The notes below the pieces were generated by a model. That model saw only the letters and a program-made list of their open reading frames with translations. It was not told the DNA's origin and ran no database searches. DNA of 64,000 nt from Mayamaea pseudoterrestris (lineage: Eukaryota): NCBI GenBank assembly GCA_027923505.1, contig BROI01000012.1, forward strand, positions 744,001-808,000. The letters run 5' to 3'. This document shows, one piece after another, positions 1 to 19,905 of the stretch (the stretch's first letter is position 1; each line of letters begins with the position of its first letter). Position numbers and translations under genes: made by a program.

Positions 1-389
1 TGATCATGTTAGCTATCCCAAACACATTGCTTTACTCTAGGAGTATGCTTTCAGAGAGCCATCAAATACCACTCATTTACTGCAATCTCTAGCCTCTCCT
101 TCTGTTCCACATAGACTAAAATTGTAGGCAACAACCCATGAAAGCATTCTGACTGTGTCTACAGTTTGACAGTCTCTGTGCGCGCGGAGCGGCAAAGTCT
201 TTGCAGGCTTAGTGAAACCGTTATTCCTCCTGCCCCGCGAATGTCATCACAGTGACGGTACGACAAGAGGTTGGTTTTTTGATTGCTTTTTTGTCGCGAC
301 CAACATTTACATTACGAGAACCAACCAACGACGAGACGACAAAGAGGACGCTTACTAAATATCTCTGCCTGCATACAAGTGCATGCTAT

Positions 390-13686: not shown

Positions 13687-15273
13687 ATGACGACAGTAGC
13701 TAAATCGATAAGCCCCATTTTGACGAGGCTACGAGCGGATGAAGGGCAAGTCGTTGCTTCCGTCGACAGCGGTAGCGGTCATCCCAATGACGAACAGATT
13801 TCAGTTTTGCCAATGTACCGATTACGCCCAAAGGCTAAACTGTGGCAACTCAATGAGATGGATCCATCGCTATTTTGGAAATTTGTCCAAGGTCCAGGAT
13901 TTGCTCTTCAGATCTCGAAAACACTTTGCGCAATCCTTTGCAACTACGATCACACCCCATGCTTGAAACATCGCAACGGAGAAGAGTACACGGACATTGG
14001 CCCTCAGCTGTCATCGGCTGCCGACGGCAGAAGAGAGAAATTACGTGCCAAGATCACATGCTTTGTACTACCAAGCTCCTTGAGCAAAGAGGAGCTGCTT
14101 CAAGTCAAGCGCGACTATGAAGTCCTTTTACGATTTGTGACGGGCTGGCCAATGTTGGGCAGTCAGCCACTCGAGAGAAATATTTTCATCGAAATTAATC
14201 CCGATTTTGACTACGCCGATGACCTGGAAGATATCTTCTCAGCAGAATGCGTGCAGACATGCTTTGCGCAGCAAGGTTGGGATGAAACAGCAAATCTAAG
14301 GCTCGCTGAGTTCCACCCTTCTCAAGCCATGTGGACAGCTCTGGCAAACCACCCCTTCAACGATTTGACACTCTTAGGATATATCACTATACCACGGAGT
14401 TTTCTGCGGCAGCATCGGTGCGCTAGCCTCACTGTGCATTGCCAACCAAGCCCAGAAGAAGCACCGGAAGCTTGTGCAGCAGGAATTGCGCCGATTCACA
14501 TAGACGCCGACAGTGATACGTTTTGGACGCCGCAAGATGCCGATGATTTTCTCCATACTTGGTTGACAGCGTCTAGTAACTTGTTGATCCACGATGCGCG
14601 ATTTAAAGAAGAATCATGGAATCGCTTTTGGCAGTCGCCAATATTGCTGAACAACACGACTTGCGCGTCCCTCACGTTTGTGGAAAGCATAATCCACGAT
14701 AAGGATTTGAGCCATGAGCATTTTGGTGTTATTCCGAAGTCGACATGGATAGTGGAGTGGTTGTCGAATGAGCGTACGCGTTCGAAAGGGACACTACGTG
14801 TCCGACGCAACCTTGCAGCGCTTTCCCAAAGCTCCATGGCGTATTTTCGCCCGGAACAAAATCCACTACTTGGAGACAAACCTCCACTTGATGCAAGACA
14901 GTCAGTGATTCTAGAAGCCCTTTTGCGCGCAGCCAATGATCCGACCCATGTATTCAATTTATCCAAAGTGTACGCGCCAGTCTTGCTGGCACCTCGCACA
15001 TCGGAAGCCTGCGTTCACGACACTGAAACGTCTCTGGTTGAACTCCGTGCGCTGGGAATTGATCACCAAACGACCATTGAAATGCTTGTGCAAGCCAACA
15101 ATACACTGCAGGAGCAACGAGCACGGGACAACCAGGAAATGCGCGACATTGTCCGACGAATGGAAGAGGAAAAAAGGTTGCGTCAGCAAGAAACCCAGCG
15201 ACTGGAATCGAGATTGCGGGCATTGGAAAGCGAGAATCGTTTGCTTCGGTCGAAGGCACGCGATGGCGGATGA
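13687..15273 (+). CDS. Hypothetical protein with C-terminal coiled coil
   Basis: 528-aa intronless ATG ORF; heptad-rich C-terminus (LQEQRARDNQEMRDIVRRMEEEKRLRQQE). Confidence 0.7.
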   Translation: MTTVAKSISPILTRLRADEGQVVASVDSGSGHPNDEQISVLPMYRLRPKAKLWQLNEMDPSLFWKFVQGPGFALQISKTLCAILCNYDHTPCLKHRNGEEYTDIGPQLSSAADGRREKLRAKITCFVLPSSLSKEELLQVKRDYEVLLRFVTGWPMLGSQPLERNIFIEINPDFDYADDLEDIFSAECVQTCFAQQGWDETANLRLAEFHPSQAMWTALANHPFNDLTLLGYITIPRSFLRQHRCASLTVHCQPSPEEAPEACAAGIAPIHIDADSDTFWTPQDADDFLHTWLTASSNLLIHDARFKEESWNRFWQSPILLNNTTCASLTFVESIIHDKDLSHEHFGVIPKSTWIVEWLSNERTRSKGTLRVRRNLAALSQSSMAYFRPEQNPLLGDKPPLDARQSVILEALLRAANDPTHVFNLSKVYAPVLLAPRTSEACVHDTETSLVELRALGIDHQTTIEMLVQANNTLQEQRARDNQEMRDIVRRMEEEKRLRQQETQRLESRLRALESENRLLRSKARDGG

Positions 15274-15628
15274 AAGAAGAACATGATTCAGCTTGTCTGT
15301 GACGGAGAAGTTGTTCATCTATGCGGGCTCGGCATATCATATTTGCGGCCATACCGTAAATACAAGGCCATGCGCCAAGACTACAGGATGGCTTCGTCAT
15401 TGTTCTAAATATACCTTAACCGTAAATTTGTGTTTTTCGCTTCATCGTTACGTTCTGTATCGGCGAGTCAGATGTGGCAGGGATCTGCGTGTTAGCTGGG
15501 TTTTCTTTGGTGTGCTTGCTTACGTCATGCACCTCTCGCGCTCGGCTGATCGAATCGCATCCTGTCAAAATGGACATGGCCGATATCTGCGTTGAAGATG
15601 GCCGTTACGTTGTTTGAAGTCGTCCCTT

Positions 15629-18600
15629 ATGTCTAGTAACATGGTGCCAGGGAAACGGCAAAGAAATGCAGTCGGTCAAACTGGCGCCTCGATTTCACTT
15701 CCAGTTGGGCTCCTTGTGATTTGCTCGCTTTTGCTCATCGAATCGCCCCATTCATTGGCTTTCACAGTCAAGACATCAGCGATTAGCTCAAGGCATCTAT
15801 ACAAGCAGGACTATAGGTTATACAGAAAGACTGAAAGAAATGTTTTGCATGATTTAAATGGGAATATTGAATCAGAACAGCAGCGACGGCAAGAGAAGTT
15901 AATGTCTTTCGACTCGACTTCATATCTGACTGCTGCCAATCTACTACTTCCGTTCTATGACAAGACAATCAACGACTCTACGTTAACTTCATCGCGACGA
16001 AATCTATTTGCATCCAGTCTCATCGCCGCTGGAACGTTCCTTGCGGCAGCCGATGCTGGCAATGCCGCCACGTTGAGCAATGTCAATGTCGCCTACAGCC
16101 AAACCTCCAAACTCGTTTGGTCATCGACACCTGTCAACAAGCGATACGGTGTGACTGTCTTTGACGCCGAGCAAGCGGGATACAATGTTCCATTCGTCAC
16201 CTACTTGAGTCGCTTTCTCTTATGCTTTGACCAAGATTGCCAACGCTGGTGGTACAATCGAGCAGCAGATATTCCCCGAACGGCCAACCGAGCAAAAGTC
16301 AATGAGCTTCGGCTCGCCCAGTTTGCCGCCTTTTCGGCTAGTGTTGCCGTTGGACTACAAGAGTACCGCGACCCAAAGACTGGTTCAAAGACATTGATGC
16401 AGTCGCTGCTAAGTCGGTATTGTCCGGATGTTTCGCAAATGGAAGCTGTCAGAGCGATTCGCTATGATGCTGGGCAAAGCATGTCGGATAGTGAAATGCA
16501 GCGGGAGGATCGCGAAATTAAAGAGGCGCGACGTCAGATTGCATTGCTGTTTGGATTGTTGGAAGAGAATCAGCCCGTGGAAGATATTACAAAGCTATTG
16601 GCGGCGATTGATAATGGAAGCATTACTTCTGTACGCATTGTTGATCCAGGAAGTGGATACGCTCCTGGATACGGGCCGCCCGAAGTCAAGTTTCCACCAC
16701 CAGAGGCGGGAGAAGGCTACGAGACTGCAACGGGTAGAGCTACACTTCGACCAAATGGCAAGATATTGCGGATTGACATTGTCAACCGCGGGGGAGGCTA
16801 CACCAAGCCGCCGACGGTTACGGTCGCCCCTCCAGCGTCGATTCGATTTGGCGATGCGGCGGCTGAACGAGCTGAAACGGCGGAAGCCAAGGTTCTATTG
16901 TTTCGTAGCGGCGTCAACAAGGGTCGAATCGAGCGCATTCAGCTCATTAATCCAGGCGCTGGCTACACTGCCAACGAAATCATCAAGGTTCGCATAGATC
17001 CACCCGATGCTGCGCCACAGGAGGGAGGGATCACTGCCACAGCCACTGCCGTATTGGAGTACCAAGTCGGCGACATTGTCATTGTCAATAACGGAACCGG
17101 ATACGCGGTGGAGAAGCCAATATCTGTTTTCGTTGAACCTCCTCCCATTACCGCCAGAGTTAACATGAACGATCCGCTCATGGCTCGCATTGTTGCTCCC
17201 GACAAGCCGCTCCCAGCAACCACGATTCCGTCAAAGGAAATGCGAAGAAAAATGCCACCACCAGAAGACCCCAGCTCAATGGCGTATCGCTTGATAACAG
17301 ATGCTAGAGCAGATGGCAAGGGAGGGGCGGGCGGCTGCATCGGCCGAGGGTGCTACGACAGCCCAGTAATTGCGACAGCATACCCGCGAGCTGAAAGGGA
17401 CAGCTACAATATGTTTCGCAATGAGGATGATGCTCGCAAACCAAGGCAAATTGAGAATGCGCTGGAGATTCGAGGAGCGACCGCGTTCCAGGATACGCAA
17501 CGAATGATGCGTGTGAGTGCGTCTGGCGACGATAAGTCAGACAGTTCGAAACGTGTCTTGGACTTTGGATTGTCGTCTCCGTCAACTGAGCTGCTGTCCC
17601 TGCTCCCCGCTGGTGTGGGACTTGAGTTTAATAGTGAAGTTGGTCGATACCAATTGGTATCTGATCCAACTGTCATCGGCATAGGACAAGACACATCGAA
17701 GAAAGCTCTTGACCCAGATTTTGGACCTCGAGGTCGTTCGCCGATTGAAAAGGAGATGGACCTGGGTCTGGATACTTATTTACGCTTTGTCGCATCCGGT
17801 GCCATTTGCTGCTCTGGCGTCCATCTGCTACTAACGCCGATTGACGTATTGAAAACAAAGGTACAAACGGACCCCGTCAAGTATCCAGGTGTGGTGAAAG
17901 CATTTCAACGAATTTCGCAGGAGGAAGGAGTTGGCACATTTTTTACCGGATGGGTGCCAACCTTTCTGGGCTTTTTCGTTTGGGGCGGCGTATCCTATGC
18001 CCTTACTGAATTCCTGCGTCGAGCATTGACGGTAGTCTTTGCCGATAATGCGACGCAGTTGGAGGTCTTGATCATTTTGCTCGCCTCCGGTGCTGCATCC
18101 TTCCTTGGATGCTTTGTCATTTGCCCGTTCGAAGCGGTGCGCATTCGCTCTGTCGCACAACCCGACTATGCACGCTCCATTGTCGACGTATTCAAACGCA
18201 TTGTCAAAGAGGAAGGCGTGTCATCACTTTTTAGCGCCGTCCCTGTCTTCTTTACCAAGGAGATTCCATTTGCCATGGCCAAGTTTACCGTCTTTGACAT
18301 ATCAACAACCATGTTGTATGAAGCCTTTCCGGCAGCAAACGAAGATTTGCAGCTGTCACTGCTGGTCAGTCTTGCTGGAGGAACACTCGGAGGCTTTTGT
18401 GCCGCCGTAGTGAGCAATCCAGCCGATGTCATCATTAGTGAAATGAAAAAGTCGAAGAACGATTCGGGGCCAGTGGCAGCAGCGTCCATGGTCTTGGAGC
18501 GAGGCGGACCTCCTTCGCTATTTCGAGGTTTGCCATTGCGTTTGGTCTTTTATGCCTTGATTGTATCGCTGCAATTCTTGGTGTACGACGCTGTCCGTTT

Positions 18601-18685
18601 CGCGTTGGGCATTGGCAAGGATGATCTGAAACTGTACCTGGATGTTTTGGGCGGAGCGCTCAGCGAAGGTGGCGGGCCAGTGTGA
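15629..18685 (+). CDS. Mitochondrial-carrier-family (phosphate-carrier-like) protein with ~700-aa N-terminal extension, probably plastid-targeted
   Basis: C-terminal ~300 aa show three carrier signatures (PIDVLKTK, PFEAVRIR, PADVIISE) and PiC/Mir1-like context (GAICCSGVH, GWVPTFLG, KEIPFAMAKF); N-terminal signal peptide ends SLA-F. Confidence 0.88.
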   Translation: MSSNMVPGKRQRNAVGQTGASISLPVGLLVICSLLLIESPHSLAFTVKTSAISSRHLYKQDYRLYRKTERNVLHDLNGNIESEQQRRQEKLMSFDSTSYLTAANLLLPFYDKTINDSTLTSSRRNLFASSLIAAGTFLAAADAGNAATLSNVNVAYSQTSKLVWSSTPVNKRYGVTVFDAEQAGYNVPFVTYLSRFLLCFDQDCQRWWYNRAADIPRTANRAKVNELRLAQFAAFSASVAVGLQEYRDPKTGSKTLMQSLLSRYCPDVSQMEAVRAIRYDAGQSMSDSEMQREDREIKEARRQIALLFGLLEENQPVEDITKLLAAIDNGSITSVRIVDPGSGYAPGYGPPEVKFPPPEAGEGYETATGRATLRPNGKILRIDIVNRGGGYTKPPTVTVAPPASIRFGDAAAERAETAEAKVLLFRSGVNKGRIERIQLINPGAGYTANEIIKVRIDPPDAAPQEGGITATATAVLEYQVGDIVIVNNGTGYAVEKPISVFVEPPPITARVNMNDPLMARIVAPDKPLPATTIPSKEMRRKMPPPEDPSSMAYRLITDARADGKGGAGGCIGRGCYDSPVIATAYPRAERDSYNMFRNEDDARKPRQIENALEIRGATAFQDTQRMMRVSASGDDKSDSSKRVLDFGLSSPSTELLSLLPAGVGLEFNSEVGRYQLVSDPTVIGIGQDTSKKALDPDFGPRGRSPIEKEMDLGLDTYLRFVASGAICCSGVHLLLTPIDVLKTKVQTDPVKYPGVVKAFQRISQEEGVGTFFTGWVPTFLGFFVWGGVSYALTEFLRRALTVVFADNATQLEVLIILLASGAASFLGCFVICPFEAVRIRSVAQPDYARSIVDVFKRIVKEEGVSSLFSAVPVFFTKEIPFAMAKFTVFDISTTMLYEAFPAANEDLQLSLLVSLAGGTLGGFCAAVVSNPADVIISEMKKSKNDSGPVAAASMVLERGGPPSLFRGLPLRLVFYALIVSLQFLVYDAVRFALGIGKDDLKLYLDVLGGALSEGGGPV

Positions 18686-18919
18686 ACAAGGAAAGGAAGC
18701 AGACGCCACTTTCCTTGGGCATGCCGACAGTCGGATTTGATAGCGAAACCCTCTCGCGTGGATCTGTATATGCAACTTGAAACGCAACGCTTGATCAGCA
18801 ACAGGATGAAAGAAACTACATACTATAGAGCTAATATCATACAATCTAGACAAGCTATTACATCTACCTCAATCAGAAAACTTATTGAACCCTGCTTGCT
18901 TGCCAAAGCAGAATGGAGC

Positions 18920-19609
18920 CTAGTTCTTTTTCTTGTCAGCCGCAGGCTTTGTAGCCGTCGCTGGCTTGCTATACTTGCCATCCACTAACCGCTGATAGAG
19001 CTTGTCAATCTCTTGGTTTAAACCAATCTCATCAAAGTAGCCATCCTTGTCAAAGAATTTCCCAACACTCCAAGTCTGCTCAACCTTGAGCAATGGCTTG
19101 TCTCGAATCTCCAAACTAACTGTGTACCATTCACTAAACCGAGGCAACTGACTGCGGACGCACACTCCATTGCTCTTGGCCAAGTCATTATTCGAGCACT
19201 TGGTTGGCGGAAGCGTTGCAAGAATCGAGTCGCGATCAATATAGGTAGTAATGAGCTGCAATGCTCCACTCAATGCGAAATACAGGCACCCGCAGACTCC
19301 CAGTAGCGGCCGTGACTCCGGAAACGGAATGGGCGCAAACTGCCCAATCATGGCAAAGACACAAGCAAGAGTCATGAGCAGCAGCTTAAAGTTATCCCAC
19401 TTGGTATCCTCCTGAATGTAGTGATGGGAAGGCTCGACAATTGCTTGGGCAACGGCTTCGTCCAAGACTTGCTTGAGTTTAACCATGTCGCCGAGTTCAA
19501 TCTGGAGAAGCTCCTCCTGCTGCGCATTGATTTCAGTCGCGGGAGTTTCAACAGCATCGACAGCTGCAACCACTGGCGTCGTGTTACTTTTACTTGAAGA
19601 AGGAGCCAT
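18920..19609 (-). CDS. SPCS2: Signal peptidase complex subunit 2 (SPC25 family)
   Basis: DMVKLKQVLDEAV, two TM helices around PFPESRPLLGVC, RSQLPRFSEWY and SVGKFFDKDG, all typical of Spc2. Confidence 0.85.
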   Translation of the reverse strand: MAPSSSKSNTTPVVAAVDAVETPATEINAQQEELLQIELGDMVKLKQVLDEAVAQAIVEPSHHYIQEDTKWDNFKLLLMTLACVFAMIGQFAPIPFPESRPLLGVCGCLYFALSGALQLITTYIDRDSILATLPPTKCSNNDLAKSNGVCVRSQLPRFSEWYTVSLEIRDKPLLKVEQTWSVGKFFDKDGYFDEIGLNQEIDKLYQRLVDGKYSKPATATKPAADKKKN

Positions 19610-19905
19610 GGTATATCAAGTAGTAGCAGCCGTGACGGATGAGATGAAGCCTTGCAGCGTGGAGGTTTCTTTCTCGTCATGGTTGCGACGAGCGGCTGTC
19701 GCATCGATTCAGCAATCATGAATACTCATGTCGTTTCGTGACTGCTGCACCTTGCAGATCCATCAACCGCGACGATGACGGACGTCACTTTCGGCAGCGC
19801 CGCATCTTGCTTTGGAGAACTCTATAGCTGCTGTAGCTGGTCCTAACGATTGCTACTACCCGTTGAACAATACTTGGAAGCAGATCTTATAATAAGAATC
19901 TTATT

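Follow-up and report, generated by a model that had tools for sequence, protein, structure and literature searches.

A 64,000-nucleotide stretch of the genome of the diatom Mayamaea pseudoterrestris (assembly GCA_027923505.1, contig BROI01000012.1, positions 744,001 to 808,000 of the forward strand; hereafter the window, numbered from its first letter) carries a gene that joins four units of a beta-strand repeat, known from phage and bacterial proteins, to a transporter domain of the SLC25 (mitochondrial carrier) family. This fusion is genuine and old. The gene family to which it belongs is known and not new; what appears to be undescribed is the combination of the repeat, a helical domain, and a motif resembling those of the twin-arginine translocation (Tat) pathway on an SLC25 protein that resembles phosphate carriers. 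The protein is probably plastidial, and the placement that we prefer, and hold only tentatively, has the long N-terminal extension exported by Tat into the thylakoid lumen and the carrier embedded in the thylakoid membrane.

Four Repeat Units in One Open Frame

The gene lies on the forward strand in a single open reading frame (ORF; window 15614..18685), which comprises 1023 codons and a stop without any interruption. An earlier note on this DNA, made from its letters, had drawn attention to positions 16610-17140, corresponding to aa 333-509 of this frame, and had read there four GxGY repeats fused in frame to a carrier. Both parts of that reading stand: the strings that it quoted are present as written, repeats and carrier share the one frame, and a hidden Markov model (HMM) of the unit finds exactly four domains, at aa 332-362, 371-406, 434-453, and 471-498 (full-sequence E 1e-27). 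The HMM has 40 positions and draws on 64 units taken from five proteins outside the diatoms (P0337, P0209, P0167, P0240, and P0338). With it the repeat region reaches 95.3 bits, whereas all 500 shuffles of its 209 residues stayed at or below 6.0 bits. The consensus of the unit starts with A-T-A-x-A-x-L, continues as G-x-I/V-x-x-I-x-V-x-N-x-G-x-G-Y, and is followed by P-x-V-x-I. The strands ATGRATL, AEAKVLL, and ATATAVL, previously seen as links between repeats, correspond to the first strand of units, and the consensus of the phage and bacterial type shows the same A-T-A-x-A-x-L start.

All four units are encoded on the forward strand. Unit 1 (16607..16702, aa 332-363) has a GSGY motif and is without the first strand (independent E-value, i-E, 6.2e-9), while unit 2 (16724..16834, aa 371-407; i-E 5.5e-12) is complete and has the motif GGGY. 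Unit 3 (16880..17005, aa 423-464; i-E 4.5e-8) has GAGY, with flanking strands placed according to the secondary structure of an AlphaFold2 (AF2) model, and unit 4 (17024..17143, aa 471-510; i-E 5.1e-8) has GTGY. Together the repeats make up about one third of the N-terminal extension. The spacing of the GxGY motifs between units is irregular (47, 55, and 46 aa); the raw list of spacings reads 20, 27, 55, and 46, with an extra GEGY sitting between units 1 and 2. Three to five G.GY motifs are found in all of the 121 proteins compared (the query, its 927-aa database model, and 119 homologues), and no second copy of the repeat is present elsewhere inside the 64-kb window.

The Repeat in Phages and Bacteria

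The earlier note had assigned the repeat to structural proteins of T4-like (cyano)phages and to some large bacterial proteins, and the searches of phage families, protein profiles, and structural models agree with this. When aa 321-529 were compared with PHROGs, 20 families were matched at E<=1, and the matches to virion structural, head-closure, baseplate-wedge, and tail-fibre families range from 2.8e-14 to 1e-5, the best being a virion structural family (2.8e-14), head closure Hc2 (4e-14), tail fibre (7.5e-12), and baseplate wedge (1.1e-8). In PHROGs, neck, sheath-stabiliser, wedge, and fibre proteins carry the same module. A tblastn search of 50,697 cultured-phage records matched seven, every one a Synechococcus phage (S-MbCM6, S-MbCM25), with 33% identity over 71% of the query (E 3e-4), and the features concerned are annotated as structural protein or gp8 baseplate wedge.

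A profile was made by aligning the repeat region to its counterparts in 13 diatom homologues (A1, with a mean column identity of 65%). Among 1.84 billion representative proteins it matched 3372 at E<=1e-3, a number that falls to 830 at E<=1e-10 and to 85 at E<=1e-30. Two classes can be told apart in the 150 listed among these 3372. Sixty proteins have a single matching stretch and are colinear with the window protein as a whole (see below), and the other listed proteins, from ~500 to 7900 aa long, match in 4-22 stretches, with a GxGY period of 39-42 aa in the multi-repeat proteins (one has 19 motifs at 38-40 aa, another 43 motifs). Twenty multi-stretch proteins were scanned with Pfam. Phage families pass the cut-off in four of them (T4-gp15_tss at E 1.7e-72, T4_neck-protein at 8.3e-34, Baseplate_wedge at 5.4e-11), the gp15 protein also matching DUF5050 below the cut-off, and one scanned protein has a sub-threshold Gp18_dom_I; others have cellular families (Cu-oxidase_2, cyclophilin, LVIVD, NHL, and CarboxypepD_reg). 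Ten of the 20 match no Pfam family whatsoever, and the repeat itself therefore has no Pfam model. According to the unit HMM, bacterial proteins from metagenome-assembled genomes (Planctomycetota, Pseudomonadota, and Georgfuchsia) have 2-4 units each. A further profile search that included distant members (A3) added a few more unnamed fusion proteins and many unnamed repeat proteins of ~660 and ~740 aa.

Searched directly, the repeat unit of the window protein matches no Pfam or NCBIfam model, and NCBIfam gives zero matches for the whole protein, the repeat region, or the N-terminal domain. The direction of the transfer, from a phage or bacterium to an ochrophyte, is read from distribution only, with thousands of phage and bacterial proteins against a single ochrophyte family.

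The top match of the whole profile search is P0122, a protein of 3120 aa (E 2.8e-117, 21 stretches, 43 GxGY motifs) with no Pfam family and no recorded name. The top multi-repeat proteins are likewise unnamed, and giant repeat proteins of this kind are uncharacterised.

Predicted Fold of the Repeat Region

The AF2 model obtained from A1 is mainly beta, with a predicted local distance difference test (pLDDT) of 79.9 and a predicted template modelling score (pTM) of 0.69, and in a longer model of 600 aa the repeat region exceeds a pLDDT of 90. Each unit is modelled as a hairpin that leads through the GxGY loop into a third strand. In a Foldseek comparison with viral models, 27 matches reached E<=1e-3, with 15-29% identity, almost all of them from phages (among others the Synechococcus phages S-PM2, ACG-2014f, and S-SCSM1), and one row is a Sylvanvirus protein. 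Against the PDB, Foldseek gave no row at E<=1e-3 for either model, and a sequence search of solved structures with the repeat region produced a chance match only (E 1.7).

The top three rows of VIA-align were the same for both models (3foa_A, 3fo8_D, and 9ev2_S1; Z 4.0-5.0, rmsd 3.0-3.5, 75-79 residues of units 2-3) and correspond to domain I of the T4 tail-sheath protein gp18 and to a Klebsiella phage sheath. Two units may pair into a small barrel resembling the exposed sheath domain of gp18. This is a lead only, identity to gp18 domain I being 16-18% and the Z scores lying below the level typical of the best unrelated match with this tool (7-8). The four-unit version is a small, well-folding form of a repeat for which these searches found no close solved structure.

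Homologues and Age of the Fusion

The homologue search listed 120 proteins, including the 927-aa model of the window gene itself, all of which cover 54-97% of the query and 114 of which have PF00153. The genera named include Fistulifera, Nitzschia, Pseudo-nitzschia, Cylindrotheca, Amphora, Attheya, Leptocylindrus, and Epithemia, and among the listed proteins are MMETSP transcripts labelled 'type:complete'. More members are known by name from Cyclotella meneghiniana, Thalassiosira pseudonana, the raphidophyte Chattonella subsalsa, and Chrysoparadoxa australica. By the unit HMM, the proteins of T. pseudonana, Cyclotella, and Chattonella have four units each, as has P0018, a protein near-identical to one of Phaeodactylum tricornutum (see below), and that of Chrysoparadoxa has three.

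Colinearity of the 60 single-stretch matches with the query usually begins at ~aa 121-128, and the conservation profile is unbroken from ~aa 165 to the C-terminus. Among 25 more distant single-stretch matches that were scanned, 17 have Mito_carr, and the remaining eight stop before the carrier or just inside it, on short contigs; these eight look truncated, and some may be genuine carrier-less forms. A phage- or bacterium-derived structural module grafted onto a transporter, as the earlier note had proposed, fits these results, and the architecture is found colinear in diatoms, a raphidophyte, and Chrysoparadoxa. Because colinear homologues occur in all three and the conservation is continuous, sequence comparison places the architecture no later than the last ancestor that diatoms, raphidophytes, and Chrysoparadoxa share. 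Table S3 of PMC9546453 is in agreement, since the Phaeodactylum gene has there an inferred origin in the 'PXR ancestor' and a loss in the 'Pelagophyte/Dictyochophyte ancestor'.

One protein labelled Alexandrium tamarense (P0446, in the cluster of P0168) falls in the same 90%-identity cluster as the T. pseudonana orthologue and is probably a diatom contamination of a dinoflagellate transcriptome, not a dinoflagellate gene.

The Phaeodactylum Orthologue

Judged by sequence, the window gene is the orthologue, in another diatom, of Phatr3_J11866 of P. tricornutum, because P0018, near-identical to Phatr3_J11866 over the ~400 aa compared with Table S2 of PMC9546453, is 56% identical to the window protein (58% over aa 121-720). 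The sequence printed in that table has 1057 residues, as has P0018. The Phaeodactylum and window proteins are of the same length class, with the same order of parts and four repeat units, and belong to different species; the identity of only 56% with P0018 led us to reject Phaeodactylum itself as the source of the window.

Table S2 lists Phatr3_J11866 as 'Mitochondrial carrier protein', with no localisation experiment, and gives a HECTAR prediction of 'chloroplast' and no presequence with MitoFates (PMC9546453). The text of a preprint describes the gene product as a phosphate transporter targeted to the plastid, reporting its enrichment in a plastid fraction and co-expression of the gene with those of photosynthesis and the Calvin cycle (bioRxiv 2024.12.16.628690). 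Another names it among the transporter genes that a genome-wide CRISPR screen found depleted in high light (bioRxiv 2025.09.15.676419). In the literature searched, the gene appears as no more than an identifier in lists. The locus is absent from the main text of PMC9546453, as is the word 'extension' from that of bioRxiv 2024.12.16.628690. No description of the extension, the repeats, or the architecture was found in the literature searched, which took in the main texts of bioRxiv articles; the impression recorded beforehand, that the architecture is not known to be characterised, holds to this extent, though the gene family is already catalogued. Homologues of PHT2 and PHT4, which transport phosphate in plant plastids, and of TAAC, a nucleotide carrier of thylakoids, were not found in diatoms according to a review (PMC5948301). 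The gap could be filled by another phosphate route of the plastid or thylakoid.

Carrier Domain and Candidate Substrate

The C-terminal part of the ORF (17759..18682, forward strand) is an SLC25 or mitochondrial-carrier domain with three tandem Mito_carr repeats (PF00153, 137 bits against a cut-off of 22.3, E 1.7e-40; best stretch aa 726-805), and no other Pfam family lies above the cut-off in the ORF. The 'mitochondrial-carrier domain' of the earlier note is present, and its location, a point that the note had missed, is most likely plastidial. Two segments, P-I-D-V-L-K (aa 742) and P-F-E-A-V-R (aa 838), fit the PX[DE]XX[KR] signature of the family.

The automatic JGI name of the protein is SLC25 phosphate transporter 3, and in the Atlas it lies closest to clusters named 'Phosphate carrier protein' and 'Pic2' (scores 0.94-0.95). 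The Arabidopsis proteins AT3G48850, AT5G14040, and AT2G17270 we take to be PHT3 phosphate carriers. They are the best Arabidopsis matches of Phatr3_J11866 in the published comparison, at 32-34% identity (PMC9546453). Because of the automatic names, the Atlas clusters, and this identity of ~33%, phosphate would be our candidate substrate, with a chance that we put at even or slightly lower.

N-Terminal Signal Motifs

Translation most likely begins at one of two ATG codons of the forward strand, 15629 (aa 6) or 15641 (aa 10), and orthologues with long N-termini favour an upstream start. The database model of the gene (P0002, 927 aa) begins at the ATG at 15902 (aa 97) and skips the in-frame stretch 15629-15901. 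This stretch encodes a putative signal peptide and a conserved phenylalanine, and for this reason the model is probably cut short at its N-terminus.

The first segment (15629..15763, forward strand) resembles a signal peptide of the endoplasmic reticulum (ER) by its hydropathy, with a hydrophobic core at aa 28-43 (Kyte-Doolittle maximum 2.33) followed by S-L-A and F50, which by eye make up an ASAFAP-type pattern of complex-plastid presequences. With a crude script requiring such a core and then [ASGCTPN]F, 47 of the 66 homologues with at least 50 aa upstream pass; among those with a strong core the motif follows in 47 of 48, against a chance expectation that we estimate at about one third. The next region (15764..15988, aa 51-125, forward strand) is poorly conserved and, to judge from the conservation profile and the N-termini, would be transit-peptide-like.

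A third segment (15989..16069, aa 126-152, forward strand) consists of a Tat-type motif, S-S-R-R-N-L-F, a mildly hydrophobic stretch (Kyte-Doolittle maximum 1.45 versus the 2.33 of the ER signal), and an A-G-N-A-A end, so that the window protein has the sequence features of a Tat signal, namely a motif of the S/T-R-R-x-F-L type, moderate hydrophobicity, and a small-residue end. The arginine pair is found in 85 of 87 aligned homologues, the other two being gapped there, and in 32 diverse sequences R128 is invariant and R129 at least 90% conserved. Alignments to distant members mostly start at this motif. The signal peptide, the Tat-like RR motif, and also the helical domain and CxxxxC linker described below are newly noted features that the earlier note had missed.

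A comparable stretch is seen in another diatom carrier, MCFc (Phatr3_J46742), whose sequence in Table S2 of PMC9546453 has S-R-R-F-F-L and a hydrophobic stretch ending in A-N-A, located after the signal and transit peptides and before the carrier domain. A Tat-like leader may be common to ochrophyte plastid SLC25 proteins.

Proposed Location of the Carrier and Alternative Explanations

These features are consistent with a nuclear-encoded membrane protein of ~1015 aa that would be made for the plastid, with the ER signal peptide, its F at +1, and the transit-like stretch serving as the two-part signal for entry into the complex plastid. In SLC25 carriers the two termini lie opposite the matrix-equivalent side, and because of this the ~580-aa extension would lie opposite the stroma if the protein is plastidial. 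In the version that we tentatively prefer, the RR signal would send the extension across the thylakoid membrane, which would make it lumenal and leave the carrier in the thylakoid. Fixed on the lumen side, the extension could then bind a partner or gate the carrier, much as N-terminal domains regulate the Ca-dependent carriers. The order of domains, its conservation, the kinship of the repeats, and the presence of the signal motifs are shown directly, and compartment, substrate, and the role of the repeats are inferred from them.

A number of points weigh against this reading as a whole, phosphate as the substrate included. The curated Tat HMMs in the Pfam and NCBIfam searches do not match the window protein, and they match few of 32 homologues (Pfam TAT_signal one, with 24.2 bits against a cut-off of 22.7, TIGR01409 one, and formate_TAT two). 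A Tat substrate that continues into six membrane helices is, to our knowledge, without precedent, a matter on which no specific search was made. The binding or gating role is an analogy, and the repeat has no assigned function even in phages. The third carrier signature, P-A-D-V-I-I (aa 936), is without its basic residue (deviations in repeat 3 also occur among phosphate carriers), and the phosphate assignment itself consists of automatic names and ~33% pairwise similarity. For Phatr3_J11866, ASAFind gives 'Other' in Table S2 (PMC9546453), and the authors of the CRISPR screen propose a candidate role in a malate shuttle (bioRxiv 2025.09.15.676419). The literature searched contains no localisation experiment for any member of the family.

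A location in the inner plastid envelope is an alternative that we consider only somewhat less likely. The RR motif and the hydrophobic segment would then stay uncleaved as a stop-transfer anchor, with the helical domain and repeats placed between the two innermost plastid membranes, and phosphate or another metabolite would be exchanged with the stroma. The signal peptide with its F and the plastid predictions are as expected under this layout as under a thylakoid one, and the orientation of the SLC25 ends away from the stroma fits its topology. A weak match to the PetC transmembrane-anchor family is seen in one homologue (E 0.067), and plant plastid members of the carrier family are mostly envelope proteins. 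Envelope metabolite shuttles are also what the authors of the CRISPR screen have in mind (bioRxiv 2025.09.15.676419). However, the near-universal RR pair (85 of 87), the weak hydrophobicity of 1.45, and the A-x-A-type end would seem to fit a cleavable Tat signal better than an anchor.

Far less probable is an ordinary mitochondrial phosphate carrier with the extension in the intermembrane space, its true start being the ATG of the 927-aa model and the signal-peptide-like stretch upstream remaining untranslated. The database model does start at aa 97, the carrier does resemble mitochondrial phosphate carriers, and the ASAFind result for the Phaeodactylum orthologue (PMC9546453) is in line with it. 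Yet the frame is open upstream, and 47 of the 66 homologues with long N-termini pass the test for core and F. Phatr3_J11866 moreover has no presequence according to MitoFates and is 'chloroplast' for HECTAR (PMC9546453), and the enrichment in the plastid fraction and the co-expression with photosynthesis (bioRxiv 2024.12.16.628690) also point away from mitochondria. Finally, an artefact, either two neighbouring genes read as one frame or a chance resemblance to the repeat, is scarcely credible, since colinear full-length homologues exist in many genera, including transcriptome-derived proteins marked complete, conservation is continuous from ~aa 165 to the end, and the repeats reach 95 bits where none of the 500 shuffles passed 6.

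Helical Domain and Cysteine Linker

Between the Tat-like segment and the repeats there is a family-specific all-alpha domain (16106..16612, aa ~165-333, forward strand), delimited by conservation and by the AF2 model (pLDDT 80-93), in which C209 is invariant and C270 highly conserved. It has no match in Pfam or NCBIfam, and an Atlas search with it gave no usable match. With the 600-aa model, which is longer than the tool advises, VIA-align gave nothing convincing for this domain, every Z being <=3.5. A word-based search, which needs shared 5-mers, found no stand-alone or bacterial version of the domain and returned only fragments of the family, for instance from Fragilaria crotonensis.

The repeats are followed by a conserved linker (17144..17758, aa 511-715, forward strand) that contains the motif TARVNMNDP, the cysteine pair C575-x4-C580 (window 17336-17353), and, just before the carrier, FGPRGRSPIE. 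Of 87 homologues, 81 have C575 and 81 have C580. The AF2 model of the linker is only partly ordered.

Gene Neighborhood and Sequence Variation

Downstream, a convergent ORF of 229 aa (window 18920-19609, reverse strand) matches the 25 kDa subunit of microsomal signal peptidase (SPC25, E 2.7e-30), and its stop is ~235 bases away from that of the carrier gene. The upstream neighbour (window 13687-15273, forward strand) is an ORF of 528 aa with a charge-rich, coiled-coil-like C-terminal tail, for which no Pfam family was found at E<=0.01.

The segment 14500-19800 of the window was also compared with contigs of four runs from one study (the kind of runs is not stated). Many single-base differences were seen, often in two versions per run, with a further 224 beyond those displayed, which suggests two haplotypes or strains near the organism of the window. 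These contigs have no reported joints within 14500-19800 and no listed piece covers the whole gene; contigs are by their nature uninformative on a transcript.

Implications

Diatoms contribute a large share of ocean photosynthesis, and the passage of solutes across their plastid and thylakoid membranes is largely unexplained. A family that is conserved in ochrophytes and, in Phaeodactylum, co-expressed with photosynthesis genes and hit in a high-light screen is a concrete and testable candidate transporter for this purpose. It also illustrates clearly how a structural repeat of phages or bacteria has been taken up into a transporter of a eukaryotic organelle.

A more ambitious proposal, which we consider unlikely, is that of a thylakoid SLC25 carrier with a Tat-exported lumenal domain of ~580 aa that includes a beta-repeat module captured from a phage or bacterium. 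If true, no other polytopic carrier would be known to have a Tat signal at its head, and no cellular eukaryote would before have been seen to use this virion-decoration repeat. By sensing or binding something in the lumen, the module would tune the flux of phosphate, or of another small solute, between lumen and stroma, and such tuning would in turn explain the selection against loss of the Phaeodactylum orthologue under high light. The Tat-like motif of MCFc would then imply that ochrophytes route several SLC25 carriers into thylakoids by Tat.

Comparison With Known Systems

Among named carriers, the nearest clusters are those of the mitochondrial phosphate carriers (SLC25A3, yeast Mir1/Pic2, and Arabidopsis PHT3), which have the same three Mito_carr repeats. 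These carriers sit in mitochondria, are ~300-380 aa long (306-328 aa in the Atlas clusters), and have no large extension, whereas the window protein has ~700 extra N-terminal residues and plastid-type signals. A parallel in layout is offered by the Ca-regulated carriers (SCaMC/APC and the aspartate-glutamate carriers), which also have an N-terminal domain on an SLC25 core, a soluble one located on its non-matrix side. They use EF-hands for this, while Pfam finds no EF-hand in the window protein, which has instead a helical domain and beta repeats of the phage type.

SLC25 members that work in plastids are represented by the plant thylakoid ATP/ADP carrier TAAC and by the diatom MCFc (PMC5948301, PMC12645085), both of which are without the helical domain and the repeats. 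MCFc, a protein of ~40 kDa from a different carrier subfamily whose GFP fusion spread evenly through the plastid (PMC12645085), was considered as the identity of the window gene and rejected on grounds of its size and subfamily.

The repeat itself finds its counterpart in cyanophages (PHROGs 460, 701, 19630, 5342, 708, and 2885, for example the S-MbCM6 protein), with which the window protein shares the unit consensus, the predicted three-strand unit, and the HMM matches. In phages and bacteria, however, the repeat proteins have 4-43 GxGY motifs at a regular period of 39-42 aa and are virion or surface proteins. The window protein departs from these long tandem arrays, having four irregular units set within a cellular membrane protein, with unrelated domains on either side.

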